From the sequence record NC_019704.1: 44,375 nt of DNA. One strand, given 5' to 3'. The position numbers and the translations under genes were made by a program. Under the pieces are notes generated by a model. That model searched no databases, was not told the DNA's origin, and saw only the letters and a list, made by a program, of their open reading frames with translations. Shown piece by piece: positions 12,801-32,958 of this stretch; positions within the stretch are counted from its first letter, which is position 1; every line of letters starts with the position of its first letter. Source of the stretch: Enterobacteria phage mEp237.

Positions 12801-12805
12801 CAGTT

Positions 12806-13905: not shown

Positions 13906-13906
13906 T

Positions 13907-14638
13907 ATGCGCCAGAAAACCATTGATGCCATCATGGCACACGCTGCAGCGGAATATCCGCGAGAGTGCTGCGGCGTGGTGGCACAGAAAAGCCGGGTTG
14001 AGCGCTATTTTCCCTGTCGTAATCTCGCAGCAGAGCCGACTGAACATTTTCACCTGTCCCCCGAAGATTACGCAGCGGCAGAAGACTGGGGGACGGTGGT
14101 GGCCATTGTTCACAGCCATCCTGATGCGACGACGCAGGCCAGCGAGCTGGATAAGGCGCAGTGTGATGCAACGCTGCTGCCCTGGCATATTGTGAGCTGG
14201 CCAGAGGGGGATTTACGTACCATTCAGCCACGCGGGGAGCTGCCATTGCTGGAGCGTCCGTTCGTGCTTGGCCACTTCGATTGCTGGGGTCTGGTAATGA
14301 GCTATTTCCGGCAGACCCACTGTATCGAGCTCCACGATTACCGGGTGGATTATCCCTGGTGGGAAAACGACTACCCGGACAATTTCTATCAGGAGTGCTG
14401 GTACGAGTGCGGATTCAGGGAGTTTGATGGTCCGCCTCAGGAAGGGGACCTCGTCATCATGCAGGTGCAGGCCGATAAGTGGAATCATGCCGGGATTTTA
14501 CTGGAGGGTAACATGCTGCTGCACCATCTTTACGGGCATCTGAGTCAACGTGTTCCTTATGGCGGATACTGGCAGGAGCGCACAATGAAGATCGTTCGCT
14601 ATAAAGATGTAATGGCAGGTGAAACATGCAGGAAGTAA
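13907..14638 (+). CDS. K: Tail assembly protein (lambda gpK homolog; JAMM/MPN plus NlpC/P60 domains)
   Basis: Start MRQKTIDAIMAHA with AGGAG upstream; JAMM motif HSHP...S..D and C-terminal region match lambda K; the ORF-track start at 13868 overlaps L and lacks an RBS. Confidence 0.9.
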   Translation: MRQKTIDAIMAHAAAEYPRECCGVVAQKSRVERYFPCRNLAAEPTEHFHLSPEDYAAAEDWGTVVAIVHSHPDATTQASELDKAQCDATLLPWHIVSWPEGDLRTIQPRGELPLLERPFVLGHFDCWGLVMSYFRQTHCIELHDYRVDYPWWENDYPDNFYQECWYECGFREFDGPPQEGDLVIMQVQADKWNHAGILLEGNMLLHHLYGHLSQRVPYGGYWQERTMKIVRYKDVMAGETCRK

Positions 14639-15232: not shown

Positions 15233-15257
15233 AGGCCACCTCAGGGTGGCCTTTTTT
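15233..15257 (+). terminator. Intrinsic terminator-like hairpin between I and J
   Basis: 8-bp stem AGGCCACC / GGTGGCCT, loop TCAG, then TTTTT. Confidence 0.6.
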
Positions 15258-15268
15258 ATGGGCGCAAT

Positions 15269-18200
15269 ATGGCTACATCTACTCCGATTAGAGGCCGCAA
15301 GGGCGGCAGCTCCAGTTCACGCACCCCGACTGAACAACCAGACGATCTCCAGTCCGTAGCGAAAGCCAAAATTCTTGTTGCACTGGGAGAGGGCGAATTT
15401 GCAGGGCAGTTGACGGCGAAGGATATCTATCTCGATGGCACGCCACTGGAGAATGCAGACGGATCGCAAAACTTCAGTGGCGTGGCGTGGGAATTTCGTC
15501 CGGGGACTCAGGCACAAAAATATATTCAGGGTATCCCCGGCACAGAAAATGAAATCAGCGTGGGCACCGAAGTGTCAAGCACCACCGGCTGGACACATAC
15601 CTTTACCAACACGCAACTGTCAGCCGTTCGCCTGCGCCTCAAGTGGCCATCGCTTTTTAAACAGGAGGATGATGGCGATCTGGTTGGCTATTCAATTAAC
15701 TACGCTATTGATCTGCAGACCGATGGCGGCACCTGGCAGACGGTACTTAATACCAGCGTAACCGGCAAGACAACTTCCGGCTACGAACGCAGCCATCGTA
15801 TCGATTTACCACAGGCAGGCAGTACATGGACGGTGCGCCTGCGTAAGCTTACGGCGGATGCCAACAGCGCGAAAATTGGCGACACGATGACGCTGCAGAG
15901 CTACACAGAGGTTATTGACGCCAAACTGCGTTATCCAAATACCGCGCTGCTGTACATCGAATTCGACTCAAGCCAGTTTAACGGCTCTATCCCGCAAATA
16001 TCCTGCGAACCGCGAGGGCGTGTAATCCGCGTTCCGGATACGTATGACCCGGAGACCCGCACCTACAGCGGCACATGGACAGGGGCGTTTAAGTGGGCGT
16101 GGACGGATAATCCAGCCTGGATTTTTTACGATCTGGTGGTGAGCGACCGCTTTGGGCTGGGCAATCGCCTGACGGCGGCCAATATTGATAAATGGACGCT
16201 TTATCAGGTCGCGCAATATTGCGATCAGCCGGTTCCTGATGGTAAAGGCGGTAGCGGCACTGAGCCTCGCTATACCTGTAACGTGTACGTGCAGGAGAGG
16301 AATGACGCCTATACCGTGTTACGTGATTTTGCGGCGATATTCCGGGGCATGACGTACTGGGGTGGCGATCAAATCGTTGCGCTGGCGGATATGCCCCGCG
16401 ATGTGGATTACAGCTACACGCGTGCAAACGTGGTTAATGGGCGCTTTACCTATTCGGGCAGCACCACCAAAACCCGCTATACCACGGCACTGGTTTCCTG
16501 GTCCGATCCGGGTAATGCCTACGCGGATGCGATGGAGCCTGTATTTGAGCAGGATCTCGTTGCTCGCTTTGGCACAAATCAGCTCGAAATGACAGCCATT
16601 GGTTGTACCCGGCAGTCAGAGGCAAACCGCAAAGGACGTTGGGGTATCCTGACCAATAACAAGGATCGCATCGTGTCGTTCGATGTTGGTCTTGACGGTA
16701 AGATCCCACAGCCTGGTTATATCATCGCGGTTGCCGATGAGCTGCTTTCCGGAAAAGTGATGGGAGGGCGCATCAGCGCGGTTAACGGTCGCGTTATCAC
16801 GCTTGATCGTGATTCGGCAGCCGCTCCCGGAAGCCGTCTGATGGTTAACCTTCCGTCCGGCGCATCGCAGAGCAGGACGATACAGAGCGTAAACGGGCGG
16901 GCCGTCACTGTGACAACGGCATACAGCGAAACACCTGCAGTGGAATCGGTGTGGATTGTCGAGTCTGAAGAGCTTTACGCGCAGCAATATCGCGTTATCA
17001 GCGTTACGGATAATAATGACGGAACGTATTCGATTGCTGGCGCTTTGCACGATCCGGATAAATATGCGCGTATCGATACCGGTGCCATTATCGACCAGCG
17101 GCCAATAAGTGTAATTCCGCCCGGTAATCAGTCCCCGCCAGCTAATATCGCGATCAGTTCGTTTTCTGTCGTTCAGCAGAATATCAGCGTTGAGACCATG
17201 CGCGTCAGCTGGGACCAGGCGAAAAATGCTATCGCGTATGAGGCACAGTGGCGTCGCAATGACGGGAACTGGGTGAATGTGCCGCGCAGCTCCACCACGT
17301 CATTCGATGTTCCGGGGATTTATGCAGGACGCTACCTGGTTCGCGTGCGTGCCATCAATGCCGCCGAAATTTCATCTGGGTGGGGCTATTCAGAAGAGAA
17401 AACGTTGACGGGTAAAGTGGGAAACCCACCGAAGCCGGTTGGCTTCATCGCTTCTGAAAACGTGGTATTCGGTATCGAGCTGAACTGGGGATTCCCGGCG
17501 AATACCGAAGACACGCTGAAGACGGAAATTCAGTACAGCCTGACCGGTAGCGAAGATGATGCAATGCTGCTGGCCGATGTGCCTTATCCGCAGCGCAAAT
17601 ATCAGCAGATGGGTCTTAAGGCAGGGCAGATTTTCTGGTATCGCGCGCAACTGGTCGACAGAACGGGAAACGAGTCCGGGTATACCGACTGGGTGCGAGG
17701 TCAGGCCAGCATCGATGTTTCCGATATCACCGATGTGATCCTGGAGGAGATCAAAGACTCCGCTACGTTTAAAGATCTGATTGAGAGCGCAGTGGACAGC
17801 AATGAAAAAATTGCTGGCATGGCTGACGAAATCAAAAACCATGCAGACGAGCTGGAGCAGCAGGCGAAAGATATACAGGAAAACGCTGACGGGCTGGCGC
17901 AGGCGGCGGTAAAAATCGATGAGATTTCCGTTTCAATGGACGGTATGACAGGAGGCGTGAAGAATTCGGCAATTGCGATAATCCAGAATGGGCTGGCGCA
18001 GGTTGTCAGTCGTCGTTCCCAGACAGCAACAAACGCCGGGAACAGTGCCAGTATAGACAGAGTGGATACTACGATTGCCGATACCAGCCAGGCGGTCGCA
18101 CGCGCGCTGGTCACACTGGATGCAGAAGCTGGTGGCAATATCTCTAACTCAACGGACCTGACAGAAACTCTTGCTGATTTCACCCAGGCTTCGGCAACAA

Positions 18201-18724
18201 AAATCAACACTCTGACTGTTAAATCAGGCGAAAACAGTGCAGCGATAAACGTCAACGCACAGGCTATAGCAGATGTAAACGGTAACCTCAGCGCGATGTA
18301 TAACATCAAGGTGGGGGTGTCCAGTAACGGGCAGTATTACGCTGCCGGGATGGGTATAGGGGTTCAAAATACACCCTCCGGCATGCAGTCACAGGTAATC
18401 TTCCTGGCAGACCGTTTCGCCGTGACTACTATGGTCGGCGGGACTGTAACACTGCCGTTCGTTATCCAGAATGGCCAGGCCATTATCAGGGATACAGTCA
18501 TTGGCGACGGGACCATAAGCAATGCAAAAATTGGCAATTACATCCAGTCGAACAATTATGTTGCCGGCTCTGTTGGCTGGAAACTGGATAAGTCCGGGAC
18601 GTTTGAGAACTACGGTTCGACAGCTGGGGAGGGAGCCATGAAGCAGACCAACCAGACAATCAGCGTCAAGGATGGCAACAACGTTCTGAGAGTGCAGGTT
18701 GGCCGATTAACGGGGGTGTTCTGA
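15269..18724 (+). CDS. J: Central tail fibre / host specificity protein (lambda gpJ homolog)
   Basis: 1151 aa (lambda J 1132 aa); conserved N-terminal and central blocks (e.g. TEVIDAKLRYPNTAL, TGAFKWAWTDNPAW); C-terminal part diverges. Confidence 0.95.
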   Translation: MATSTPIRGRKGGSSSSRTPTEQPDDLQSVAKAKILVALGEGEFAGQLTAKDIYLDGTPLENADGSQNFSGVAWEFRPGTQAQKYIQGIPGTENEISVGTEVSSTTGWTHTFTNTQLSAVRLRLKWPSLFKQEDDGDLVGYSINYAIDLQTDGGTWQTVLNTSVTGKTTSGYERSHRIDLPQAGSTWTVRLRKLTADANSAKIGDTMTLQSYTEVIDAKLRYPNTALLYIEFDSSQFNGSIPQISCEPRGRVIRVPDTYDPETRTYSGTWTGAFKWAWTDNPAWIFYDLVVSDRFGLGNRLTAANIDKWTLYQVAQYCDQPVPDGKGGSGTEPRYTCNVYVQERNDAYTVLRDFAAIFRGMTYWGGDQIVALADMPRDVDYSYTRANVVNGRFTYSGSTTKTRYTTALVSWSDPGNAYADAMEPVFEQDLVARFGTNQLEMTAIGCTRQSEANRKGRWGILTNNKDRIVSFDVGLDGKIPQPGYIIAVADELLSGKVMGGRISAVNGRVITLDRDSAAAPGSRLMVNLPSGASQSRTIQSVNGRAVTVTTAYSETPAVESVWIVESEELYAQQYRVISVTDNNDGTYSIAGALHDPDKYARIDTGAIIDQRPISVIPPGNQSPPANIAISSFSVVQQNISVETMRVSWDQAKNAIAYEAQWRRNDGNWVNVPRSSTTSFDVPGIYAGRYLVRVRAINAAEISSGWGYSEEKTLTGKVGNPPKPVGFIASENVVFGIELNWGFPANTEDTLKTEIQYSLTGSEDDAMLLADVPYPQRKYQQMGLKAGQIFWYRAQLVDRTGNESGYTDWVRGQASIDVSDITDVILEEIKDSATFKDLIESAVDSNEKIAGMADEIKNHADELEQQAKDIQENADGLAQAAVKIDEISVSMDGMTGGVKNSAIAIIQNGLAQVVSRRSQTATNAGNSASIDRVDTTIADTSQAVARALVTLDAEAGGNISNSTDLTETLADFTQASATKINTLTVKSGENSAAINVNAQAIADVNGNLSAMYNIKVGVSSNGQYYAAGMGIGVQNTPSGMQSQVIFLADRFAVTTMVGGTVTLPFVIQNGQAIIRDTVIGDGTISNAKIGNYIQSNNYVAGSVGWKLDKSGTFENYGSTAGEGAMKQTNQTISVKDGNNVLRVQVGRLTGVF

Positions 18725-18725
18725 T

Positions 18726-19028
18726 ATGGCTTATGGAATACAGACCTGGGATGCTTCGGGAAACCCCAACAACTACGGAATCAAGCCAGTTTCCGTTGTT
18801 GGACGTATACAACTTGCCGCCGGACAAAACTCCGGCAGCTGGTCTTTCACGGTACCCTCAGGAATGAAGGTCGGTTTTGCGCTCTCACTTGATGAAGGAG
18901 GTAACAGCGTAGGGAGGAGCATTGTCGCGTCAGGGAACACAATAACCGTAACCGCAGCCTCTTCTGTGGGCCTGGGTAATTACCCGGCCTCTAAATGTGA
19001 GGTGGTCGTTTTCATGGAGAAAGCATAA
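18726..19028 (+). CDS. Hypothetical tail-associated protein
   Basis: 100-aa ORF directly after J; contains a WDASG motif shared with the next ORF; no family recognised. Confidence 0.55.
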   Translation: MAYGIQTWDASGNPNNYGIKPVSVVGRIQLAAGQNSGSWSFTVPSGMKVGFALSLDEGGNSVGRSIVASGNTITVTAASSVGLGNYPASKCEVVVFMEKA

Positions 19029-19702
19029 TGGCCGAATTTGGCGCGATGATATTAATGGATAACGGGAATCCCTTTGTAACGCCACAATCAACGCCTTTCT
19101 GTCTTTACGGGAAGTATACCTTCAATTCATCCGCGAATGGCAGTTCTCAGCAGGTTGCTCAAAATATCGCTTTAAACGCTGATTACCCAGTGATGGTTTT
19201 TATCAAAACCACCAATACAGCACAGCCCACTCCGGTTATGTCTTACAGGAACGGCGGTAATGTGTATGTTGCTGGTGTTAATCCCTACAACCAAAGTTTC
19301 ACTTTAACGGCGTACGTTTTTGCCATATTCCCGCAGATATTACCGAAATGGGGTTTGGCAATATGGGATGCGAGCGGAAAGCTTGTGTTAACTAATGAGT
19401 CCCGTGTGCTATCAGACCTGCAGACGGTTGGCACGCCTGGTGCAAACGGCGGGATAAATATTGACCAGACGCTGAGCGGGTCATGGGCCGTTGCACCTGC
19501 TCAGTTGGGTCAGACCATCATTGTGAATAATTCAACCCAGCCTCCGACTATCTACACGATAAATGCTTATTCTTCATGCAGGTTTGACGGGGCCAATACG
19601 AGGATAAACGCAGGGGGGACCTCCACTGGGGCAGGTTCACCTGGAGGGGGAACGAATACTGGCATTTCATTAACCGCCATAAATACAGCGGCCTATGATT
19701 GA
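19028..19702 (+). CDS. Hypothetical tail-associated protein
   Basis: 224-aa ORF with GGAG RBS and TAATG coupling to the previous ORF; Gly/Thr-rich C-terminus. Confidence 0.6.
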   Translation: MAEFGAMILMDNGNPFVTPQSTPFCLYGKYTFNSSANGSSQQVAQNIALNADYPVMVFIKTTNTAQPTPVMSYRNGGNVYVAGVNPYNQSFTLTAYVFAIFPQILPKWGLAIWDASGKLVLTNESRVLSDLQTVGTPGANGGINIDQTLSGSWAVAPAQLGQTIIVNNSTQPPTIYTINAYSSCRFDGANTRINAGGTSTGAGSPGGGTNTGISLTAINTAAYD

Positions 19703-19813
19703 TTGATCGTTTTTAGCGATCAATAACATAATATTGATCTATCCAATCAATTATACCCACCAGAATTGTATTGGTATCGTCTAAGATACTGAATTCCTCT
19801 GGATACTATCAAA

Positions 19814-20047
19814 ATGAGAAAACTGATTATCTGCATGGCAGGCGCTGTCATGCTTACAGGATGCGCTGGCGTAATTGAGAAACAGGAACCAGTTTGCAGC
19901 GGCACTGCAATCGTTGGCGGTCAGGAAACTACGGTTCAGATTTACGGTGTGCGTAAACAAAACAACCAGACGCAGTACCGGGCTGGATATCCTTTCAGCT
20001 GGCGCTGGGTAAGTGCGAATACATTTACCGAAACAACCTGCAAATAA
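19814..20047 (+). CDS. Small lipoprotein (possibly Cor-like superinfection exclusion)
   Basis: 77 aa; signal peptide with lipobox LTGC (MRKLIICMAGAVMLTGCAG); followed by an intrinsic terminator. Confidence 0.6.
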   Translation: MRKLIICMAGAVMLTGCAGVIEKQEPVCSGTAIVGGQETTVQIYGVRKQNNQTQYRAGYPFSWRWVSANTFTETTCK

Positions 20048-20068
20048 CCCACTACGCTTAAACATAAA

Positions 20069-20091
20069 CCTCGCTCCGGCGGGGTTTTTTT
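20069..20091 (+). terminator. Intrinsic terminator after the lipoprotein gene
   Basis: Stem CCTCGC / GCGGGG (one G-U pair), loop TCCG, then a 7-T run. Confidence 0.65.
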
Positions 20092-20107
20092 ATTGCCTGG
20101 AGAAAAT

Positions 20108-21511
20108 ATGCTTTATAACACCGGCACCATCGCCATTAATGGAAATACCGCCACCGGGACGGGTACAAACTGGACGGCACCGGCCAGCCAGGTCCGCGCT
20201 GGCCAGACGATTATCGTGATGTCTAACCCGGTGCAGCTGTTTCAGATTTCATCCGTGAACAGCGCCACGTCTTTGACGGTTACGCCAGTTGCTTCCCCGG
20301 CGCTGAGCGGCCAGAAGTATGGAATCCTTGTGTCAGACAATATCTCAGTCGACGGCCTGGCGCAGGCCATGTCTCAGCTCATCAAAGAGTATGACGAGAA
20401 TATCGGCGCATGGGAGACGTTCGCCACAACCTCAGCCAACCAGAACATTACCGTTACGATCAATGGCACCAGTTTATCAATCCCGGCTCTTGGGAAATTA
20501 CTGCAGAAGGGGGGCAACGGAGCTTTGCCGGTTAATCAAGGTGGTACCGGCGCAACGAATGCCGCAGACGCTCGCACAAACCTCGGTTTAGGCACATTCG
20601 TTACCCAGGAAGATCAGAGCATCGTCTATGGCCCGTCGCTGGATCATGCGCTTGTCGTACGAAAAGACGAATGGGGCGTCGTTGTTTCGGATAATGGTAA
20701 TCCGGTACCACTCGGAACCCGTTATGGCGGAACGGGGGCAAAAACACCTTTTGATGCAGCAACAAATCTGCAAACCATTAGATCCCTGACATATAGATTT
20801 GGCCCAGGAATGGACCCTACGTCAATATCATTTAAAAACACATCAGCATTTATAGTAGGACAGCAGGGCTATGGTCCTATCGGCGCTTTTCTGGATATCA
20901 CATCTTTCGATAATTCTGCAAGGATGCAGCTCTACGGGTGCTATGACTCACAAATGTTCCCGGGTAAAAATGCACTTGCCTACGCAACGTATAACCCAAA
21001 CGACCGTACCTGGTACCCAATTGCATTTGTAAGGGACACATCGAATACAACTGTCGATTCGAACGGTTTCATTAAATCAGCATCTCCAATAGTCAACGTT
21101 TATGGTGATGGGCGATACGAAACTAACGATGAATCAGAAGGGGTAAGAGTCACACGTCTGGATGTGGGGCAATACTACATTGAGGGATGTCAGGCGCTCA
21201 ATTCTGACGCTGCATGGGGCGGTATTGACGGAGGTTTTGAGATTCCCACTGACAGGAATAAGCAACCGCTGATATGGCTGGATTACGAGGTTAACGCCGA
21301 CGGCTCTGTGCTGGTAAAAACCTATCACCGCGAGCATCCTTCAGCGCCAGCATTTGCCAGGAATGAGCGCGCTGGATTGGCAGATGGCGAGCCGGTTGAC
21401 ATCCCGGCTGATCAGTTCGTCAGCGTTCGTGTAGAAATGCCAGCGAGTAGCATCTGGAATCAGAAACAGAAACAAACGGAAGAGGCTTTAAAGCAGGAAC
21501 AGGGGTCTTAA
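20108..21511 (+). CDS. Putative side tail fibre protein
   Basis: ATG at 20108 with GGAG 5 nt upstream (track start 20093 is a TTG); Gly/Thr/Asn-rich N-terminal region typical of tail fibres; sits after J. Confidence 0.7.
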   Translation: MLYNTGTIAINGNTATGTGTNWTAPASQVRAGQTIIVMSNPVQLFQISSVNSATSLTVTPVASPALSGQKYGILVSDNISVDGLAQAMSQLIKEYDENIGAWETFATTSANQNITVTINGTSLSIPALGKLLQKGGNGALPVNQGGTGATNAADARTNLGLGTFVTQEDQSIVYGPSLDHALVVRKDEWGVVVSDNGNPVPLGTRYGGTGAKTPFDAATNLQTIRSLTYRFGPGMDPTSISFKNTSAFIVGQQGYGPIGAFLDITSFDNSARMQLYGCYDSQMFPGKNALAYATYNPNDRTWYPIAFVRDTSNTTVDSNGFIKSASPIVNVYGDGRYETNDESEGVRVTRLDVGQYYIEGCQALNSDAAWGGIDGGFEIPTDRNKQPLIWLDYEVNADGSVLVKTYHREHPSAPAFARNERAGLADGEPVDIPADQFVSVRVEMPASSIWNQKQKQTEEALKQEQGS

Positions 21512-21606: not shown

Positions 21607-21873
21607 TTATAGGCCAACCTGGCGAACAGTCGGGAACTCTGAAACCAACCACATATCGGACTCTTCAAACATTTCCTCCAGCATGCGGTTCAGTTTTTCC
21701 CGATCGCTTTTGCTGGCATCGCTGTTTAAGCCGTTCGCCTGCATCGGCTTAACCTTCACTTCTGCATCCGGAAAGATCCGGTGCACTCGCTTTGTTAACT
21801 CATTCAGAATTATTTCTCTGGCACCTGTTAATCCTTCAACATTCCGTTTGTCGTACACCAACTCAACGAACAT
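21607..21873 (-). CDS. dinI: DinI-family protein (MsgA-like)
   Basis: Start MFVELVYDKRN with GGAGG upstream; resembles the remembered DinI-family MsgA sequence (KRVHRIFPDA); LexA box upstream. Confidence 0.8.
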   Translation of the reverse strand: MFVELVYDKRNVEGLTGAREIILNELTKRVHRIFPDAEVKVKPMQANGLNSDASKSDREKLNRMLEEMFEESDMWLVSEFPTVRQVGL

Positions 21874-21911
21874 ACCGCCTCCAAAGCAACAATGATTTTG
21901 CACGCAATTTA

Positions 21912-21930
21912 TACTGTTTATTTATACAGT
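21912..21930. promoter_or_regulatory. LexA (SOS) box upstream of the DinI-like gene
   Basis: TACTGTTTATTTATACAGT: perfect CTGT-N8-ACAG core (21914-21929), about 40 nt upstream of the start codon. Confidence 0.75.
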
Positions 21931-22125
21931 GTCAACGGTTGGGCACGTAGCTTTTTAAGGAAGGTTTTTGGGGCATGTATGGGGCATAAATGCCAGTTTT
22001 GGGGCATGGTTGGGACATTTTAACTCATATGAACTTAACCGAATTTCATATGGAGGCGTCTTATAATGCACTGATTAACCTAAAGAAAACACATGCTCTT
22101 GGGCGTTCTTTAGTGATTTTAAAAA

Positions 22126-22230
22126 TTACCGCGTCACGCAGTTAAAGTGACGGGCATACTCTTCAAGGCTGGTGATCCCCAACCGCACCCATTTAGGATG
22201 CGACCATTGCGGCAGACCGATGTAAATCAT
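22126..22230 (-). pseudogene. 5' fragment of a yecE-like (DUF72) host gene: 34 codons then stop
   Basis: Minus-strand translation [34 protein letters not shown] resembles a DUF72/YecE N-terminus (from memory) and ends prematurely. Confidence 0.55.
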
Positions 22231-22463
22231 AACGCGTGAAGGATCTCTTCCACGCTACGCACACGGGCGATGCGCGGGTAGATATGATTAATGCTGTTAT
22301 TGTGTTGCTCGGCGCTGGCGGCACTACAGGCGTCTTCGGCAATCACCAGATTAAAGCCAAGTTCCCAGGCATTGCGGGCGGTGGATTCAACACCGATATT
22401 GGTCGAGATCCCACATAACACAATTGTATCGATACCTCGGCGGCGTAACCGCACCTCGACCAT
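22227..22463 (-). pseudogene. 3' fragment of an isochorismatase-family hydrolase gene (yecD-like)
   Basis: 78-aa ORF with isochorismatase C-terminal signature ([28 protein letters not shown]...VIAEDACSA); no N-terminal half; reading frame broken just upstream. Confidence 0.65.
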
Positions 22464-22654
22464 ATTGCAGGATTTTACCGTTGGGTAATTTCATCCATCC
22501 ATCACCACTGGCAAAAAAAGCCATATCCGGTATCTGATTTTCCCCTGTTCCCACATCCCGTTTTGCCGCTTCTCCCAAACCAACCTTTCAAATATTTTTC
22601 TGAATCAGGTGATATTTCGCCTCTTCTCCTGTTTTTACAACAGGAGAAGCACTC

Positions 22655-23203
22655 ATGATTTACGGTTATGCCCGAGTATCAACAAACCACCAGGACACTG
22701 AATTGCAACTAACGGCGCTCAAGTCAGCTGGTTGTGAGAAAATTTTTGAAGAGCATGCCAGCGGGAGGAAATCGAATCGGCCGGTTCTAAAACGGCTGAT
22801 CGCCACTATGCAGCCGGGGGATGAACTGGTGGTCTGGAAGCTGGACAGGATAGGCCGCAACGTTCTGCATGCGCTGTTGATGTTCCAGCAGTTACAGGAA
22901 AAGGGTATCAACTTCCGCAGTATTACCGATGGCGTGGATCTCAAAACAGCCAGCGGCCGCTATAACTTTCGTAACATCCTTTCCGCAGCACAATATGAAT
23001 CTGATCTTAATAGCGAACGTACCTTAGCAGGGCTGGCCGTAGCCAGGGCAAAAGGGCGAGTTGGTGGTCGCAGGCCTAAGTTCACGGATGAGCAATGGCG
23101 GGAAATGGGGGAGCGGATGGCAACCGGTGAATCACGACAAAGCGTATCAAAAACGTATGGAGTAGGGCTCTCAACTCTGTATAAAAAGTTTCCAGCTAGC
23201 TGA
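22655..23203 (+). CDS. Serine recombinase, DNA invertase (Hin/Gin/Pin family)
   Basis: 182 aa; N-terminal YARVSTNHQ catalytic Ser motif, VVWKLDRIGRN, C-terminal HTH (GLSTLYKK); GGAG RBS. Confidence 0.92.
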   Translation: MIYGYARVSTNHQDTELQLTALKSAGCEKIFEEHASGRKSNRPVLKRLIATMQPGDELVVWKLDRIGRNVLHALLMFQQLQEKGINFRSITDGVDLKTASGRYNFRNILSAAQYESDLNSERTLAGLAVARAKGRVGGRRPKFTDEQWREMGERMATGESRQSVSKTYGVGLSTLYKKFPAS

Positions 23204-23478
23204 TAACGGGAAAGAAACAGAGAAGGGCACAAATATTGTGTACTTTAATGTGCCCTTTAATTTATTGATTGGTGGTTGAATTGTCCGTAACTTTTTGATT
23301 TAAGTGCAAATTTCTAATAAATTAGAACACTTTCTTAAATTGTCATTTGGCATATTACGAACAATTCCGCGTAAAAACGTTCTGTTACGCTAAACCCTTA
23401 TCCAGTAGGCTTTCAAGGATGTAAACCATAACACTCTGCGAACTAGTGTTACATTGCGTGTAGCTTTGAGTGGGCAAC

Positions 23479-23519
23479 TTTGTGTACACTTTTGTGTACC
23501 CAAAAACAAAAATGTGTAC
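23479..23519. repeat. Three direct repeats of TTTGTGTAC / ATGTGTAC just upstream of int (candidate integrase arm sites)
   Basis: TGTGTAC at 23481-23487, 23494-23500 and 23513-23519; a fourth copy at 23237-23243. Confidence 0.5.
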
Positions 23520-23526
23520 CCATTCA

Positions 23527-24720
23527 ATGATCACCGACACAAAGCTCAGGAAGGCGCTCGGCAAGAAAAGAGATGATATCGAGATTATTTCTGATTCGCA
23601 CGGGCTCAACGCCAGAATCAGCCAGGCCGGAAAAATATCATTTTTCTATCGGTATCGCTGGGCCGGTAAAGCGGTAAAACTCAATGTTGGTGATTATCCT
23701 GCAATGAGTATCACCCAGGCAAGAGAGCGTCGCCAACAATTCAGAAACTGGTTAACTGAGGGACTGGATCCGCGAGAGCAGGTGAAGCTGGATAAGCAGA
23801 CCCGACAGGAAGCGATGTCCGTTGCCGAAGCGTTCAATTACTGGATTGAAAGGCACTGTATCGCTAACGGGCTAGTTAAAGTCGATTACTATCGCCAGGT
23901 GTTTGAGAAACATATCGCCGAACCGATGAAGAATGTCAAAGTCGATAACACAGCGAAAATGCACTGGATCAACGTCTTCGATTCTATAGAAAGCAGGGTG
24001 ATGGCTCATTACATGCTTTCGCTGTGCAAACGGGCGTTTAGGTTCTGCGTTAACAGAAGTGTGATCGCCTCAAACCCACTCGAGGGATTACTGCCATCTG
24101 ATGTCGGGCAAAAGCCTAAAAAGAGAACTCGCAGGATGGACGATGACGATCTGCGCAAAATCTATCAGTGGTTGAAAAGCCATATGTCGATAGAGTCCGT
24201 TTTCCTGGTGAAATTTATTATGCTTACCGGATGCCGTACGGCTGAGATTCGACTTAGTGAGAGATCATGGTTTCGATTGGATGATAATGAGTGGGTCGTG
24301 CCTGCGGGCAGTTATAAAACTCGGGTACATATTAGAAGGGGACTCTCAGACGCCGCCGTTAACCTGGTCAGAAATCACCTCAAGAAAATAAACACCAATC
24401 ACCTGGTGACTTCACAACGTAAAATTGATGGCGGGATCAAAGATTCGCCCGTTCATTCACCTGTGGCATCCAATTACGCCCGTTCTATTTGGAATGGAAC
24501 AGGTATGGCAGAGTGGTCGCTTCATGATATGAGGCGGACGATAGCCACAAATCTCTCTGAGTTAGGTTGCCCGCCGCACGTAATTGAAAAGCTGCTCGGG
24601 CATCAGATGGTGGGGGTTATGGCGCATTACAACCTTCATGACTATATCGATGATCAGAAACACTGGCTCCGCGTTTGGCAGAGCCATCTTGAAGAGATCA
24701 TCGGAGAGCCCTTCAGTTAA
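23527..24720 (+). CDS. int: Tyrosine integrase (P4-like phage integrase family)
   Basis: Start MITDTKLRK typical of P4-like integrases; C-terminal catalytic region (HDMRRT..., LLGHQ...HYNLHDY); track start 23470 and ATG 23512 are alternatives. Confidence 0.92.
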
Positions 24721-24959
24721 TTTATCTTCTTTTTATCCTCCCACTCTTTGATTGACTCAGAGCGCCAGCGGTTAGGGTTGCCGGGCCAGTCAGGGGGTGG
24801 GAACGGGCATACGAAGCCCCGAGGCATTGTGTCTGCACTTTGCCATGACCAAAGGGTTTTGCGTGAAATTTTGTAGCGACTGGTCAGGTCTGACGTTACC
24901 AAAATATCATCCATAGCTCTCTCCAGTTGCCCGTTCGGGCCATTCAAAATCTTTTTCAA
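24717..24959 (-). CDS. Excisionase / AlpA-like DNA-binding protein
   Basis: Pattern ...[10 protein letters not shown]...[11 protein letters not shown]... resembles Xis/AlpA; ATGA coupling to the upstream ORF; internal start at 24914 with GGAGAG RBS is an alternative. Confidence 0.6.
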
Positions 24960-25198
24960 CCAACCTGCCCGGGCAGGGAGCGGAGACGGCGCATGCCGGT
25001 CATCGCTGTGGCCACGTAGCTCGCCTTTCGGTTCACCACCTCCACCCAGACTTTCACGCCTTCAACCTTCACCGTATAAGTCTCTTTCATCTTGCTTCGC
25101 CCATAGTCGCCATATGTTTGCAAGTGAGCTGCCAGCGCGATGTCGCATGCTTGGCGAGCTAAAGGTGATTGCTTACTTCCTCGATTGATCAGTCGCAT
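24956..25198 (-). CDS. Hypothetical protein
   Basis: 80-aa ORF in the minus-strand early operon, translationally coupled to the downstream gene. Confidence 0.45.
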   Translation of the reverse strand: MRLINRGSKQSPLARQACDIALAAHLQTYGDYGRSKMKETYTVKVEGVKVWVEVVNRKASYVATAMTGMRRLRSLPGQVG

Positions 25199-25236
25199 AT
25201 AATCTCCTTGAGGGAGGGTTACCCCTCCCGGTTTCG

Positions 25237-26355
25237 TCAGGCCACGTATTCCGGTTTCATATCCGCCAGGGTGATGCTGAATTGATCGTGCAGTTCATCG
25301 CCTAAGTGACGCTTTGAAGATGCAAGCATGCGCTCGGCTTCAGCGAACCGTTCGGCTGCATGCGGCTCGTCGGGCTGGGGCAGGGATTTAATAGCCTCCT
25401 CAACCTTGTTGCGTGCATCCACTAGGTAATAACGCTTTACGGCTTTGTTTTTCAGCTCGGTGAATAGTGCGGATCCCAGCGTAGCTTTCGCCGTTTCAAT
25501 GTCGGCACGCAGCGATTTGGCGCTATCCACGTCCTGAGCAGATTCGATGCGTTCGCGGAAATCATCGGCAAGAGAGTCGACATTTACCGACGATTCCTGT
25601 GCGCTTTGCGTGGTTGTGACGGTGTCACCTGAGATATCAGCCAGGCTAACGCGTTGCGGCGTTGGGTTGATCTCTTTTTCTGTGCGCTGTTCAATCTCAT
25701 CAGGGGTGTACACACCAAGAACAACTGCAGGGCAATACAGGCGCGCCCAGTATTTGAGTGCCAGATAAGCGATCTGCTGTTTCGGGTTTGATACCCAAAG
25801 TGGAGAATTACGTGTGATTACGCTGGAGAGGAAAACAGGCTCTCCCCAGGTGATATCACTTTCACCGCGAATAACGGCACCTACCCGTACCGACAGTCCT
25901 TGTTCATCAGCACTTTCCCAACCGCGTACCATTTCTTTCTTGTCGTACGTCCCGCCACCTTTCGCAGGCTTTTTAACGGTTATCTCGCGGCTGCTGGCAC
26001 ATTTCGACCAGTCGCCCTCGTACTCATAGTGAAAGCGGCCAACGATGGCGTTTGAGCTGGAGATCACCGCATTAACCAGTTGCGCTTCGTATCCCAGGAC
26101 ACCGTTAACCAGGTGCGTCTTTTGCGCCACGGCGTAAGGGTTCATACCCCACTGCATCGCCTGCATGATGATGGCCATGCAGTCTGCCGGATTGCCGCGG
26201 AGGTGCTCAGGCACCGTTACGGCTGCCTGTGCCATCAACCCGGCGACAGACTGAAGCTGGGTTAAAGCCTGCACGTTGAAAATGGCATTGCTGGCTGAGA
26301 TCGTGTTTGGAGTCTGCTGCTCAGCGGTTACGATATTCGTGTTTTCCATCATCAT
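25237..26355 (-). CDS. Putative single-strand annealing protein (RecT-like; family uncertain)
   Basis: 372-aa ORF directly downstream of the RecE-like exonuclease gene; called by position and general character, not by a recognised motif. Confidence 0.55.
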   Translation of the reverse strand: MMMENTNIVTAEQQTPNTISASNAIFNVQALTQLQSVAGLMAQAAVTVPEHLRGNPADCMAIIMQAMQWGMNPYAVAQKTHLVNGVLGYEAQLVNAVISSSNAIVGRFHYEYEGDWSKCASSREITVKKPAKGGGTYDKKEMVRGWESADEQGLSVRVGAVIRGESDITWGEPVFLSSVITRNSPLWVSNPKQQIAYLALKYWARLYCPAVVLGVYTPDEIEQRTEKEINPTPQRVSLADISGDTVTTTQSAQESSVNVDSLADDFRERIESAQDVDSAKSLRADIETAKATLGSALFTELKNKAVKRYYLVDARNKVEEAIKSLPQPDEPHAAERFAEAERMLASSKRHLGDELHDQFSITLADMKPEYVA

Positions 26356-26360
26356 TCCCC

Positions 26361-29270
26361 TTATGCCTGAGTACGCAGCGCTTCAAGGCGGCGCAGGTCG
26401 AAGTCGTTCAGTTCGTCGGTGTAGTCAGCAGTGATTGGCGCTGGCCATTCACCTGTGTCGAATCCGGTTGCGATATTGCGCATCGCTTTGCGGTACTCGA
26501 GCATACCCAGCTCCAGTAGTTCAGCGGATGCCTCGATGATGGCGATCCAGTGGTAGTTCTCGTCTTTGTTGACGAAAATCCAGAAGAACTGATCCAGCGC
26601 TGCGGTTTCGCAGTACATAGCCGCGCTCAGGTGATAATCACGTTCAATAATTTCCCGGTGTAGCCTGGCGCGCAGGCTTTCCTGCTTAACATTCCACATG
26701 CTGATGGTTTTCAGGTCTGCACCTATACGCACGCCATCCAGGTCGATCTCAAGGTCAGGGCGCACACGAACTTCCAAGCCCGTCTCCTCGTCAAAACCAA
26801 AGTAGCTCACCTCAACGGCTCGGCTAGGGTGGGTCAGCAGCATGCCGGCGGTCGGGTGTGCCAGAAGCGCTTTTTGAATATTCAGCGCGGTGCTCAGCTG
26901 CTGGCGGGTGACCAGCACTTTTCCTTCCGGGTTATCGCGCCAGGCATCCAGCAGTTCGTCGGCAAATACGGCATCTGGTTTGACTGCCTTCACGGCCTGG
27001 ATCATGTCTGCTTTGGTACCGGACACTTTCAGTGGTGCCGGTTTCTGTGCTTCCTGAGCCACAAGGTCAGGGTTGATGATTGCCAACTGCTCCAGCAGCG
27101 CGTCACGGCTGCCGCTGGTTTTAACCGGCGGCGGCAGGGTGGCGTTGTACTCTTTAATGCATGCCTTCATTGCCGTCGCCGTCTGCTTCTGGTCACCATC
27201 AATACGCTGGAAGTCAGCTGGCAGCGCCATATAGTTCTGTGCCGTTTCTTCCAGGTTAGCGCCAAGCGGAACCTGCGGCGGCAGGGTGGCGTTGTACTCT
27301 TCCAGTAACACCTTGATGTCGTCGGCAGACAGCAGCGCCGGCAGGCTGGCATTGTGCTCATCGATAAAGGCGCGCAGGGTCGCGGCCGTTGTGAATGCGC
27401 CTTCAGGGATCACCGGTTCAACGCTGAATTCTGCGTCCAGTAGTTCAGGCTGCAACGCCAGCGCATGCACCAAGTTGCCCATGTCCAGCACCGCTGAGCG
27501 CTCTTTGACGATGGTTTTCTCTACGTGGCGCGCATTGAAGTACATCAGCGAAACGCGCGCATCTTTCACCTGGGTTGAGCTGATGCCGTTGGCGGCGTGG
27601 TAAACCTCGTTTGGCAGCCCTTCATAGCGGCCTGGCTCGAAATAAGCGGGATAAACAACAGCTGGTTCGTCAGATTGCGCTTCTGGCTCGGTTTGTGCTG
27701 CAACTGGTTCGGTTTGGCTTACAGAATCGCTATTTTTGGCGACAGAATCCGTATTCTGGTTTACATCGTCCTTCTGGCCGGGATGTGACTCTTCACCAGA
27801 CTCCAGACTGCTTTCGCCTGGCTGTACTTCATCACCAGCTTGTTTTTCATCACTGACAGTTTCTTGAACCTGCACATTGCTGGTGGTCTCCGTAGCCTTT
27901 TTCGTGCCATGAGTTGCTGAGTTCTGCAGCAAAGCCGTAACGTCGAATATTCCGTTGCCGACATTTTTAACCAGTTCTTGTTCGACTTTCTGCGGTTGTG
28001 CTGCCGCTTCCTCTGCGCGGCGGCGTGCTCCTTCTTCACGCACGCGTTGCAGGTTCTCTTCGTGAGTGCAGAAGGATTTGCGCGGAGACTCCTTACCTTC
28101 AGGTTGGGGAATTTCCTGTGTTGCGGGTTCAGCCTCATGCAACGGCAATAACTCGACCGCGGAATTGAACGCGGCTGTCATGGTCTGGTTAACAAATTCC
28201 AGGTGAGCGACAGGAGTTAAATGAATATTTTCCGGTGCGATACGTACCAGGTTAAAAATAGCCGTGCGGTTAACACCCAGAACGCCTGGCTGATTGCGCA
28301 GGATGTTGCTCCATGATTTCCATGGTTCTTCTTTTTTGGTCACGATTTCTTTAGCGCGACGAAGAATGCTGCCCGGGATCTCGAAGTGGTTGAAGTCCAT
28401 AGGCAGAAGGGCACACGCAATCTCTAAATCGAGAGTGTCCAGTGTGTGGTGTGCGTCAGGTCCACGGTCAGTGACGTAACCGCCGTCGGCATTAGTGCCG
28501 GAATCAGTACGCTGCACACTACTGATGCGATTACCGGCGGCCCATTCACGCGCCAGGATGCCACGGTCAATGTAATCAGTCGCCGCCCACATTCTGGTGA
28601 AACGGAGTACCAGCGCGAGTTCGTGACGCTTGTCCTGGCTGAACACTTTGCGAATGGCATCGGTGTAGCGCCACAGGTCTTTGGTGTCGTAACCCTTCAC
28701 TTCCGGGCAGTTCTCAGCAGCTAACAGCAAGTTCTGGACGTAACTGTTATCAGTGTCCATCTCCAGCGCGCCGATAGCTTCGTACTCTTCGTGGGTTACG
28801 TGGTGGCGCAGTTCGTCGGCGGTGAACTGGGAAAGCAGTTGCTTACGAAACGGCATCTGCACTACCGGGTAGAGGGTTGAGTCGTCGTCGTGTTCGTCCA
28901 GCGTGATGCCAGCGGTTTCTGGCAGCGTTGACTCAGTAGTTATGTGACTATCAACGGTCTGAGCCGTTTTCTCGTCAGAGTTTTCAGCTGTGACTTTTGG
29001 CAGCCAGGTGCGGTCATCGTTCTGCAGTTCGTAGCGTTCGCACCAGGTGTAATCCACTGCGCCTTCTTCCGGCAGGTCGTCATATACCGGGAAATCGGTG
29101 CGGATTGGTTTGGCATAATCTTTACCGCGGCCAGTTTCTTCAATTCCGGCTTCTTCCAGTGCCACATCGAGTTGGAGATTGGCGCGCGCTACACTTTTCG
29201 CAGTGAACCAAATCACTGCATCTTTCTTACCAGACTTCTGACTGGCTTTTATCAGATGGAAAAATTCCAT
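26361..29270 (-). CDS. recE: RecE-like exonuclease (exodeoxyribonuclease VIII type) with C-terminal PD-(D/E)XK domain
   Basis: 969 aa; C-terminal nuclease-like region (VRVRPDLEIDLDG...ADLKT); acidic repetitive linker; paired with the downstream annealing-protein candidate. Confidence 0.75.
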   Translation of the reverse strand: MEFFHLIKASQKSGKKDAVIWFTAKSVARANLQLDVALEEAGIEETGRGKDYAKPIRTDFPVYDDLPEEGAVDYTWCERYELQNDDRTWLPKVTAENSDEKTAQTVDSHITTESTLPETAGITLDEHDDDSTLYPVVQMPFRKQLLSQFTADELRHHVTHEEYEAIGALEMDTDNSYVQNLLLAAENCPEVKGYDTKDLWRYTDAIRKVFSQDKRHELALVLRFTRMWAATDYIDRGILAREWAAGNRISSVQRTDSGTNADGGYVTDRGPDAHHTLDTLDLEIACALLPMDFNHFEIPGSILRRAKEIVTKKEEPWKSWSNILRNQPGVLGVNRTAIFNLVRIAPENIHLTPVAHLEFVNQTMTAAFNSAVELLPLHEAEPATQEIPQPEGKESPRKSFCTHEENLQRVREEGARRRAEEAAAQPQKVEQELVKNVGNGIFDVTALLQNSATHGTKKATETTSNVQVQETVSDEKQAGDEVQPGESSLESGEESHPGQKDDVNQNTDSVAKNSDSVSQTEPVAAQTEPEAQSDEPAVVYPAYFEPGRYEGLPNEVYHAANGISSTQVKDARVSLMYFNARHVEKTIVKERSAVLDMGNLVHALALQPELLDAEFSVEPVIPEGAFTTAATLRAFIDEHNASLPALLSADDIKVLLEEYNATLPPQVPLGANLEETAQNYMALPADFQRIDGDQKQTATAMKACIKEYNATLPPPVKTSGSRDALLEQLAIINPDLVAQEAQKPAPLKVSGTKADMIQAVKAVKPDAVFADELLDAWRDNPEGKVLVTRQQLSTALNIQKALLAHPTAGMLLTHPSRAVEVSYFGFDEETGLEVRVRPDLEIDLDGVRIGADLKTISMWNVKQESLRARLHREIIERDYHLSAAMYCETAALDQFFWIFVNKDENYHWIAIIEASAELLELGMLEYRKAMRNIATGFDTGEWPAPITADYTDELNDFDLRRLEALRTQA

Positions 29271-29403
29271 GTGAGATCCTCTTTTTTGGGTGTTAGAATC
29301 CCCGGACCATTGATAGCGCCCATTGGGTTAACTTTGGTTTTAATGTTGTTTCCGGTGTAACTTTGGTCGGTACCACCGGACGTAGATCCCGCCTTGCGCG
29401 GGT

Positions 29404-29571
29404 TTTACGTTAGCCTTCGTGAGCCATCTGGTCGTGCGAAGCGCAACGTTTGGAGCAATACTCTTTTTCTTTGCGCGCCAGCTGTGAGCCGTTGCGATAG
29501 AGAAGGGTGCTCTTGATTACTTCCTCCGTTTTAACCGGCTTGCCGCAATATCCGCATTTCTTGTCTAACAT
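29404..29571 (-). CDS. Small hypothetical protein (55 aa, one CxxC pair)
   Basis: Hand-translated MLDKKCGYCGKPVKTEEVIK...; GGAGGA RBS 4-9 nt upstream; below the ORF-track length cutoff. Confidence 0.4.
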
Positions 29572-29582
29572 GACATCCTCCG

Positions 29583-29789
29583 CTAGTGGCTGAGTCCATG
29601 CCCCAGACCGTTCAGATAAACTTCAACCAGCAAATCCTTGGTGTAAGTCATTTCTACGCCGCGATGCAGATACAAACGTCCGCGAGCGTTAGCTGATGCC
29701 GTCCAGGTTGAGTCTTTGTGTTTGACGAGCATCCCCGGCTGAACTGCGCCGCGGTTTACTGTCTGTGTACCGTAGTGCTGATGAACCAT
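29583..29789 (-). CDS. Hypothetical early-region protein
   Basis: 68-aa ORF in the minus-strand early operon. Confidence 0.45.
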   Translation of the reverse strand: MVHQHYGTQTVNRGAVQPGMLVKHKDSTWTASANARGRLYLHRGVEMTYTKDLLVEVYLNGLGHGLSH

Positions 29790-30122
29790 GATGTTCTCCA
29801 GTTTTCTGAGTGAACTTCGCTGGTGGTGCCGTGACGCTGATCTTCACGGTTGAGCTTTTTCACTCTGCAATTCACCACCGCGAAGCTCACTTCTGTGTTT
29901 GCCCTTGTCGCCAGGCTGGCGGAACGTTTCAAACCTACTGCGCGTTAATCTCACCACCTCATTCCGGTTTTCGTATGCCCCGGACGGCTACTTCGTGGGC
30001 GTCCTGCCTCGGTGGTTGTGTTGATGGAGTAAGTAAAACACCGCTTTACCATTAAGTCAAGCAATGCAGATGCAAAAGGTAAAGCATAGCTGTATGTTGG
30101 GCGAAATTTATCCAGATTAGAG

Positions 30123-30374
30123 ATGATTGCATCAACTAAAAGTGTGTATGATGAAAAAAAACATCATTGGGGGTGGGATGTGGAAAAGTTCTACGTGGGT
30201 TACAACGATGTATGTCAGGCGGTAGGTAGAGCGACGCTGAATCTGATATCACATGGAGACGCGCCAACTACTGAGGCGATCATTTCAATACTTGAGTCGC
30301 TGGGGGATATTGAGCAGAACGATTTTTGGCGACAGGTGTTCAGGTTTGCAGCTGAGGAAGTGCGAAAAGGGTAG
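30123..30374 (+). CDS. Hypothetical protein, convergent with the three-gene operon
   Basis: 83-aa ORF ending 11 nt before the shared hairpin at 30385-30404; weak RBS. Confidence 0.4.
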   Translation: MIASTKSVYDEKKHHWGWDVEKFYVGYNDVCQAVGRATLNLISHGDAPTTEAIISILESLGDIEQNDFWRQVFRFAAEEVRKG

Positions 30375-30384
30375 GCAAAAGAAA

Positions 30385-30404
30385 CCCGGCGCGGTGGCCG
30401 GGTC
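30385..30404 (-). terminator. Terminator hairpin closing the minus-strand three-gene operon
   Basis: 7-bp stem ACCCGGC / GCCGGGT with 6-nt loop, 5 nt past the stop of the last gene; minus-strand downstream sequence is T-rich. Confidence 0.6.
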
Positions 30405-30408
30405 GATT

Positions 30409-30822
30409 CTACCCAAATGGTAGCTCAATATTCTTGATAGTTGTTGGCTTAAGTATTTGTTCACATTGTGTTTTAAAGAATATTTTTACGTTATATTCAA
30501 AGAACCATCGGTTTTCATCAAGTAATTCTGGTGTTAAATCGATACTGTCTGGATAAGTGAATACTAAACGTAAACCAAATTGCAGGTTAAACGTTTCATG
30601 GATTGCCCCATCACTGGTCGTGCTGAGACCTACAACCTTTGGGGAAGCAGTTATCTCAATTATACTTAGTGCTTCATCGGATTTTAATTTTTTACCGGCT
30701 TCGACAGTAATCTCACCGATCTCAGCTTCAAAATTGCCCCTATTAGTACCACTTTTCAAAGGGGTATGCTTGAAATGTATGTTGCTAGTGCTGACCTCAA
30801 TGAGCCTTATCTCTGATAACAT
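30409..30822 (-). CDS. Unknown protein, third gene of the AT-rich operon
   Basis: 137 aa; about 30% GC; overlaps the preceding gene by 16 nt; no family recognised. Confidence 0.65.
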   Translation of the reverse strand: MLSEIRLIEVSTSNIHFKHTPLKSGTNRGNFEAEIGEITVEAGKKLKSDEALSIIEITASPKVVGLSTTSDGAIHETFNLQFGLRLVFTYPDSIDLTPELLDENRWFFEYNVKIFFKTQCEQILKPTTIKNIELPFG

Positions 30823-31253
30823 AAAATACCCACATCATTGTTGTCGTTGCTAGAGCCAAACTTACTTCCTATCACAAAGCGCACAATTTTTGTTTCACTA
30901 GTATCTTTCAGTTCGGGTTCACTAGTCTCATATTGCCTTAATGGTGGAATGATGTGATGTGAGACATCAACCCCATTTCTGAAAACAGAGACCCTTGCTT
31001 CAGCACCCAGTGCGTATGATATGTCGGATAATGTTCTCAGGGTCATGTTTCTGGTTCCATCAAGCAGCTGCGAAACATGGGAAGGTGATTTACCAAGTTT
31101 CCTGGCAAGCTCACCTTTGGTGATGCCTGCATCTTGCATGGCTAGTAGGAGATCCTCCGTGGTGTTGAACACCAATCGTTCGGAAGCCATCTCCCTTTCA
31201 CTGACATAGGGAAGTTCGAAAACTTCGCCTGCAGAATTGTTGTCAACAGTCAT
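30807..31253 (-). CDS. XRE-family HTH protein with N- and C-terminal extensions, second gene of the operon
   Basis: 148 aa; HTH_3-like core (ITKGELARKLGKSPSHVSQLLDGTRNMTLRTLSDISYALG); GAGAGAGGA RBS; overlaps both neighbours. Confidence 0.75.
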   Translation of the reverse strand: MTVDNNSAGEVFELPYVSEREMASERLVFNTTEDLLLAMQDAGITKGELARKLGKSPSHVSQLLDGTRNMTLRTLSDISYALGAEARVSVFRNGVDVSHHIIPPLRQYETSEPELKDTSETKIVRFVIGSKFGSSNDNNDVGILCYQR

Positions 31254-31650
31254 CTAATCCTCTCTCGATTCGTTCCCAGTTGTTACGGACCTTCTGGGTA
31301 TCAGAATCACTTAGGTCATCAAAATCCTTGTAGATGTAATGACTTATGAAATAAGTCATGAATACTCTTTCTGACTCCCAGTAATAACCTCTGATGGGTA
31401 TCTTCTTTATAGCCCAAAAATTTTTGCTGGGTTTTCCATTGTAAGAAGGTAAAACCCCCTCCTTTCTAACACTTAGGTCGGGAGTCCTCTTACCAGAGGC
31501 TAATCGCTCTATTTGTAGTCTAAGATTGACTACCATAGTTTTTTGCTTTTTGGCTGGAGTCACGCTCCGGATGACATCAGATAGCGTTTTAAGAGCCCCA
31601 TTACAATGAGTTACTGTGAAGCAGTTACCTTTAAATGTATGTTGAACCAT
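31243..31650 (-). CDS. Unknown protein, first gene of the operon
   Basis: 135 aa; AT-rich; palindromic operator-like element upstream; no family recognised (RelE/HigB-like fold is only a guess). Confidence 0.65.
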   Translation of the reverse strand: MVQHTFKGNCFTVTHCNGALKTLSDVIRSVTPAKKQKTMVVNLRLQIERLASGKRTPDLSVRKEGVLPSYNGKPSKNFWAIKKIPIRGYYWESERVFMTYFISHYIYKDFDDLSDSDTQKVRNNWERIERGLDDC

Positions 31651-31662
31651 CTACTAATCCAT

Positions 31663-31682
31663 AGTTAACATATATATTAACT
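31663..31682. promoter_or_regulatory. Near-palindromic operator-like element upstream of the three-gene operon
   Basis: AGTTAACATATATATTAACT: 20-bp dyad with two mismatches, 13-32 bp upstream of the first start codon. Confidence 0.5.
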
Positions 31683-32121: not shown

Positions 32122-32153
32122 TAATGTCCCTCGCCATTTTCATCAGATGCTAC

Positions 32154-32546: not shown

Positions 32547-32565
32547 GTACAAGAGTATCACTTAG

Positions 32566-32949: not shown

Positions 32950-32958
32950 TTCACTAGT

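Follow-up and report, generated by a model that had tools for sequence, protein, structure and literature searches.

The window analysed here is the whole 44,375-nucleotide stretch of Enterobacteria phage mEp237 (sequence record NC_019704.1). Within it, fragments of the E. coli genes yecD and yecE are found between a phage arm leading to dinL and an integration module of phi80 type, and the following features were assigned to the region (window coordinates, evidence in brackets).

21634-21873, minus strand: dinL, a DinI-family gene and the first phage-arm gene past the relic core (Pfam DinI, E=4e-23; dinL in the phi80 annotation)
21904-22132, minus strand: P' arm of a yecE-type attachment site (99.25% identity to the LR536431 arm)
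21914-21929, minus strand: LexA box CTGTATAAATAAACAG, upstream of dinL (sequence and position from the phi80 'predicted LexA binding site')
22126-22230, minus strand: yecE' pseudogene, 32 native codons followed by Thr-Arg-stop from the phage arm (ORF list, MG1655 alignment, phi80 annotation)
22133-22153, minus strand: exact 21-bp att of yecE-integrating phages, CCGTCACTTTAACTGCGTGAC (equal to the Stx1_14040 'duplication due to insertion')
22227-22448, minus strand: yecD' pseudogene fragment, codons 116-188 and stop (Pfam Isochorismatase and MG1655 alignments)
22441-22448, minus strand: novel joint, an 8-bp microhomology TTACGCCG common to yecD and the tail-fibre gene (window, pro483 and MG1655 aligned together)
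22441-22583, minus strand: tail-fibre stump, 48 codons from the variable part (Sv') of an invertible gene of P2-like type (pro483 ORF31 codons 276-323, 94.4%)
22570-22598, minus strand: single gix/pix-like invertase crossover site (right half-site TTGGTTTGGGAGAA exact, left half degenerate)
22655-23203, plus strand: pinL, an orphan Pin-family serine invertase (Pfam Resolvase, E=4e-39, and HTH_7)
23324-23340, minus strand: phi80-type attP core between pin and int (17-bp match to the phi80 attB in yciI)
23512-24720, plus strand: phi80-type tyrosine integrase (402/402 residues identical to phi80 Int)

In the ORF list of the window, a 78-codon frame on the minus strand (22463-22227) terminates in ...EEILHAL, and its TGA shares an ATGA with the ATG of a 34-codon frame (22230-22126, minus strand). 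The 78-residue product matches positions 107-175 of the 175-position Pfam Isochorismatase profile (PF00857, E=2e-21) with 77.3 bits, above the gathering score (cut-off 27). A complete domain is not present, the match comprising yecD codons 116-188 only, with the N-terminal 60% of the domain absent; yecD' is hence a gene fragment and no member of the Isochorismatase family in the functional sense. The 34-residue yecE' peptide is too short and gives no Pfam DUF72 match, and yecE' is a 5' fragment only, the window DNA matching E. coli yecE over its first 96 nt inside a longer alignment. This DNA alignment, window 22135-22457 against MG1655 yecD-yecE, has 96.3% identity over 323 bp (E about 1e-153), and within it 22135-22448 (minus strand) corresponds to the final 73 codons of yecD and, across the ATGA overlap, to codons 1-32 of yecE. 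The yecD-yecE locus is present in 5426/5426 complete E. coli genomes, the nearest chromosomal alleles being 99.4-99.7% identical to the window copy. Similarity at this level is far beyond chance, and 22135-22448 is genuine E. coli DNA of fairly recent acquisition. The preliminary description, which had recognised an isochorismatase-family end in an ATGA overlap with a 34-codon yecE-like start and likened it to a yecD-yecE junction, is thereby borne out as to both identity and overlap, and the chromosome search and the alignment with intact yecD-yecE that it had called for also located the breakpoints, at the att core (22133-22153) and at the 8-bp joint (22441-22448). Of 5438 hits for the 314-bp yecD-yecE piece in the search of complete E. 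coli genomes, one lies on a plasmid record.

On the yecD side, the alignment of window, pro483 and MG1655 places the breakpoint within the 8 bp of TTACGCCG: the tail-fibre gene is colinear through ...GGTGCGGTTACGCCG and yecD identity begins at TTACGCCGCCGAGG, giving GGTGCGGTTACGCCGCCGAGG as the unique joint sequence. The broken frame at this position had earlier been explained by 16 extra nucleotides, the deletion of which would restore a continuous LQLRR reading. The arithmetic of this proposal stands, as removal of ATGGTCGAGGTGCGGT yields CTGCAATTACGCCGC, that is LQLRR; the insertion does not, since the bases concerned are tail-fibre sequence. Everything down to 22441, including CTGCAATATGGTCG, is colinear with pro483 ORF31 at 94%, CTGCAAT being native tail-fibre sequence, and as CTGCAATATGGTCG is also found in pro483, nothing was inserted into yecD and the restored LQLRR is a coincidence. 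The frame breaks because yecD and the tail-fibre gene fragment are fused there, in a novel joint at the 8-bp microhomology.

The tail-fibre stump is annotated in phi80 as 'internal fragment, phage tail collar domain protein (pseudogene)'. Its start coincides exactly with the gix/pix-like site, which adjoins the Pin-family invertase gene; pro483 has TTCTCGCATACCTTGGTTTGGGAGAA at the equivalent place and the window retains TTGGTTTGGGAGAA at 22570-22583. No partner gix site was found anywhere in the window, so that the invertase is orphaned and the invertible segment gone. A Pin invertase beside the phi80-type attP is kept in the window, phi80, HK225 and mEpX1, although it is orphaned in the window. 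Just upstream of pin, an 11-bp perfect inverted repeat (TTCTCCTGTTG/CAACAGGAGAA, 22623-22649), annotated as 'IR3' in phi80, does not conform to the hix/gix pattern AAACC..GGTTT. The tail-fibre gene of the window itself (20093-21511) is a mosaic relative to the LR536431 tail protein, with 89% identity at 20072-20741, 78% at 21044-21444 and no match in between; its C-terminus is a PF25670 domain.

On the yecE side, identity to the chromosomal (MG1655) gene ends at ...AACTGCGTG / ...CACTTTAACTGCGTG, that is at the att core. Window 22133-22153 matches the annotated Stx1_14040 duplication at 21 of 21 positions, and this 21-bp sequence is defined as the att of yecE-type phages by Nakamura et al. (2021, PMC8112680). 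Over the 400 bp beyond the core, identity to the arm of the LR536431 yecE prophage is 99.25%. Four ATG(C/T)CCCA repeats are located in the P' arm (21966-22018), and the same motif recurs in the otherwise divergent Stx1 and PPompW arms; these repeats are likely candidates for the arm-type sites of a yecE-type integrase.

Comparison to the Stx1_14040 prophage shows how the host DNA relates to such a site. In this element, the flanks match MG1655 as far as the core, the left one in yecE and the right one in yecD-yecE', and only 19 bp of MG1655 sequence is present at both prophage ends. The int-side arm lacks any yecD or yecE 5' homology, and about 40 bp separate the core from the start of int. 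The possibility that a long yecD/yecE homology is native to the attP of yecE phages was considered and rejected, only about 19-21 bp being in common. As the native attP shares no more than this with the chromosome, the 323 bp of the window represent host flank. The arrangement in the window, a 21-bp core with host sequence on one side and a P' arm on the other, is thus that of an attR, and host segment, core and P' arm together appear to form an attR-type junction that is now internal to another phage. A cognate integrase is absent, the Int of the window having no significant similarity to the yecE-type IntR, and without it the junction is a relic and not an active end of the mEp237 element.

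Many Stx1 and Stx2 phages, P-EibC and others are integrated in yecE, and the tail-fibre end of these prophages reads yecD, yecE', core, dinI. The attR of the yecE prophages (Stx1/Stx2, P-EibC, LR536431) accordingly shows the same order as the window, yecD-yecE'-core-P' arm-dinI, at up to 99% identity. However, it is chromosomal, adjoins a full-length yecD and aspS, and has its cognate int at the opposite prophage end, whereas the junction of the window is internal to a phage and truncated within yecD.

The phage has an integration site of its own elsewhere. Its phi80-type core and integrase point to yciI, the 3' end of which contains the phi80 attB (PMC13449921). In all four lysogens examined (SZQ1, 22F46, HH107 and XL10-Gold), the module of pin, tail-fibre fragment, yecD' and yecE' directly adjoins yciI, and homology between lysogen and window stops at 23343, within the yciI 3' end. 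The yecD'-yecE' segment is therefore not the attachment site of mEp237 itself. Of the two explanations put forward in the preliminary description, integration of the phage at yecD-yecE is refuted by the phi80-type attP core, the phi80-identical Int and the four lysogens at yciI. Imprecise capture of flanking host DNA was correct in kind and wrong in source, the DNA coming from the attR end of a different, yecE-integrating relative.

Among known phages, phi80/Lula (JX871397) is closest at this locus: 701 bp around the segment are 99.3% identical, and novel joint, pinL, attP, int context and dinL are all alike. The phi80 record annotates an 'N-terminal fragment, DUF72/UPF0759 (pseudogene)', pinL, the attP core and int, but its features for the stretch include neither the yecD piece nor the yecE-type core; the phi80 core has one mismatch to the Stx-type 21-mer, while that of the window is exact. 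The window is a mosaic distinct from phi80, with virion genes nearest to HK225 (94.9%) and phi80 at 92.6% over 54% of a 24-kb query. HK225 is 98.8% identical from 22562 onward, including pin-attP(yciI)-int, and mEpX1 and HK225 match at 98-99% from 22727 (or 22562) through pin, attP and int; the relic is absent from both. The unique joint is present in phi80, in nine complete E. coli genomes (701-bp query) and in four IMG/VR prophage contigs, a recurrence that argues against an assembly artefact, and is absent among the GTDB species representatives. A second copy of the 314-bp yecD-yecE piece occurs in 12 of the 5426 E. coli genomes. All relic copies have one private substitution in common, T at 22422, compatible with a single origin.

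A counterpart of the proposed source is provided by the yecE prophage of LR536431, which is complete, measures about 45 kb and reads 'yecE, int, xis ... terminase ... J, cor, tail protein, invertible fibres, pin, dinI, core, yecE', yecD. Its Int is 74% identical to the yecE-type IntR of Stx1_14040. The virion region matches the window at 1-14605 (95.6%) and 15235-20741 (89.8%), the lysis/cos end matches at 95-98%, and the right end, dinI-core-flank, is 96.2% identical to window 21619-22457. It shares nothing with the window from 22457 to 41905. Its pin and tail-fibre segment have no nucleotide match to window 22457-23203, making the LR536431 prophage a relative of the donor and not the donor. 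A derivation of the block from dinI to pin by circular permutation or tandem duplication of LR536431 (Sv'-gix-pin-dinI-core-yecE'-yecD') was dropped, the pin and tail-fibre segment being unmatched. In the LR536431 lysogen (3071-3844), the remaining 'yecE is annotated as an intact 774-bp DUF72 coding sequence overlapping the end of the prophage int gene, and the phage arm may give 'yecE a new start and continued expression.

Based on these comparisons, we propose that the segment is a fossil attR-type prophage-host junction of a yecE-integrating, phi80-like relative, grafted onto a phi80/HK225-type module, a reading that we hold with considerable confidence. A phi80-like phage with a yecE-type integrase would once have resided in E. 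coli yecE, its right end reading ...J-cor-tail fibre-dinI-P' arm-core-yecE'-yecD. The recipient ancestor would have combined a phi80-type pin-attP-int with an intact invertible Sv/Sv' containing ...GGTGCGGTTACGCCGACATTATCG... beside gix. The right end of the resident prophage, together with 323 bp of host flank, would then have been joined to the phi80/HK225-type integration and early arm (Sv-gix-pin-attP80-int80), replacing the tail-fibre and invertible-segment region of the recipient. One crossover was presumably homologous, within near-identical virion genes, and the other illegitimate, between yecD and the variable tail-fibre segment at the 8-bp TTACGCCG microhomology; the illegitimate joint would have deleted the invertible segment, orphaning pin. 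The product integrates at yciI via the phi80 module, with yecD' and yecE' as non-coding passengers. Both breakpoints are read directly from the sequence; how many events there were, and in which order, we infer. A single double crossover, an aberrant excision with a later exchange of modules, and integration into an older relic followed by deletion are all possible courses; the simplest reading would be acquisition of a yecE-prophage right end through one homologous and one illegitimate crossover.

A related junction is available for comparison in PPompW prophages. Nakamura et al. (2021, PMC8112680) report 87% identity to yecE for their attB-in-PP_1, which they derive from yecE and at which Stx2a phages demonstrably integrate; neither phi80 nor an attR-like or aberrant-recombination origin is mentioned in the text searched. 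In the present search, the PPompW copies are 91-92% identical to yecE and match it from the start to the core, at query positions 15-112 only. Past the core, attB-in-PP_1 continues as a homologue of the P' arm of the window and not as downstream yecE (L016, LC567822 697-950; L017, LC567818 695-950). With yecE homology up to the core and a P'-like arm thereafter, attB-in-PP_1 is itself an attR-type relic and not a copied attB. The window likewise contains a yecE-derived core in a prophage with this architecture, i.e. the yecE 5' part up to the 21-bp core, then a P'-like arm with TG(C/T)CCCA repeats. The PPompW copy is older or more diverged and lacks the yecD part (87% or 91-92% to yecE, compared to 96-99.7% for the window), its arm is only about 70% identical to that of the window, and it is located at the end of ompW-integrated prophages. 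The PPompW site is moreover a proven recipient of Stx phages, whereas a window-type copy was never seen occupied.

The likeness raises an alternative that goes beyond a fossil, namely that the relic is a live secondary attachment site for yecE-type phages, Stx phages included, where later deletions between homologous virion genes of the guest and the host prophage would leave arm and cargo swapped; in a variant, guest integration and deletion could themselves have produced the present arrangement. We regard a live site as possible yet doubtful. The functional attB-in-PP_1 has the same one-sided architecture and, with Stx2_14040 inserted, its sequence changes to the Stx arm at the core, and the 21-mer of the window is exactly the Stx1_14040 att sequence. 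In addition, relic copies with 99.7-100% identical host parts are joined to at least four arms, the switch occurring within about 8 bp of the 21-mer. However, homologous recombination in the 323-bp host part with real attR junctions explains this diversity equally well. Polymorphisms have no power to tell a site-specific exchange at the core from a homologous one, as the sole relic-private marker, 22422, is far from the core. The arm diversity would fit repeated exchange at or near the core, and homologous recombination would look alike. The P' arm is also present, rendering the site attR-like and not a clean attB. Finally, no prophage is inserted at the relic core in the four inspected carriers (SZQ1, 22F46, HH107 and XL10-Gold), and the other five matches in complete E. 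coli genomes give no sign of insertion, a small sample that does not show inability to receive phages.

Individual carriers illustrate the range of arms. An identical relic is followed, from about 22132 downward, by at least four arm and cargo types in different yciI prophages (L005, L006, L007, L012 and L014). The arm type of 22F46 and IMGVR_2568 resembles a Stx-phage arm, with 88% identity over 50 bp. Between yciI and kch, 22F46 (400-14300) holds only a degraded prophage, about 13 kb long, that ends in the relic; pin, relic and integrase are kept at its ends, and its interior contains baseplate genes of myovirus type, IS remnants and a TolB-family gene.

The grafted attR-type junction also has to be weighed against an origin of lambda bio type. 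Phages of the lambda bio and gal kind carry, behind a hybrid att, the host DNA that flanked one prophage end, and this DNA stops at a novel joint. By analogy, the ancestor in yecE would have excised aberrantly together with yecE'-yecD' and gained the phi80 pin-attP-int later. In the window, the host DNA does run on from the attR side, preceded by an intact hybrid att, it ends in a host/phage novel joint at a short homology (the 8-bp TTACGCCG, 22441-22448), and the cognate int is missing, all of them typical traits of transducing phages of lambda bio type. Nonetheless, the phage side of this joint, Sv'-gix-pin, is 98.8% of HK225 type and belongs with the phi80 attP-int module; it is not derived from the int-proximal end of a yecE prophage, which has about 40 bp between int and core, so that aberrant excision requires an extra recombination step and is, in our judgement, unlikely. 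The window further departs from lambda bio and gal in carrying only 323 bp and no complete gene, and its cognate integration module has been swapped for an unrelated, functional one, leaving the phage non-defective.

With respect to function, the yecD' and yecE' coding fragments are almost certainly dead judging from their sequence: the ATG of the 78-codon frame comes from the tail-fibre stump, inspection reveals no Shine-Dalgarno sequence ahead of this ATG, and the domain lacks its N-terminal 60%. A functional moron, i.e. a truncated isochorismatase-like peptide or a regulatory element, is highly improbable on the same grounds, even if the frame is still open and dinL, which is SOS-regulated, lies downstream of the segment in the same orientation, as its conservation is at the level of neutral DNA and HK225 and mEpX1 lack it.

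The segment acts only as DNA, with 323 bp that are homologous both to the chromosome and to every prophage resident in yecE, and the relic may also offer a site to yecE-type integrases. In phi80 this homology is recombinogenic: De Paepe et al. (2014, PMC3945230) describe phi80 near attP as having '96% mean identity over 300 bp' to yecD, and report 6e-7 recombinants per phage for phi80 x chromosomal yecD. In MG1655, yciI and yecD-yecE are located at 1.310 Mb and 1.951 Mb, respectively, about 640 kb apart, and in a yciI lysogen the relic and chromosomal yecD-yecE form 323-bp inverted repeats. Recombination between them could conceivably invert the interval of about 640 kb, which we take to include the replication terminus.

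The homology was already annotated and used in recombination assays in phi80, and our gain is interpretation, not discovery; the reading as an attR relic and the kinship with attB-in-PP sites may be new, if modest in scope. What the segment provides is a base-resolved record of a change of integration specificity in temperate phages, in which the virion half of a yecE phage and 323 bp of chromosome were apparently joined to the integration and early half of phi80 type. Old attR junctions are further suggested as a source of the prophage-borne secondary attB sites involved in Stx-phage accumulation. Tentatively, prophage-borne attB sites in general might be fossil attR junctions, and the phi80-type relic a working Stx landing pad and point of module exchange. 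If true, tail-fibre, dinI and cargo modules would be exchanged at the relic between phi80-like phages and yecE-resident prophages, and a phi80/Lula lysogen would offer Stx phages a second integration site even with yecE occupied. Phi80/Lula, a contaminant of laboratory strains, carries this recombinogenic patch, and the dead junction shows by what route host DNA enters phage genomes and integration modules are exchanged.
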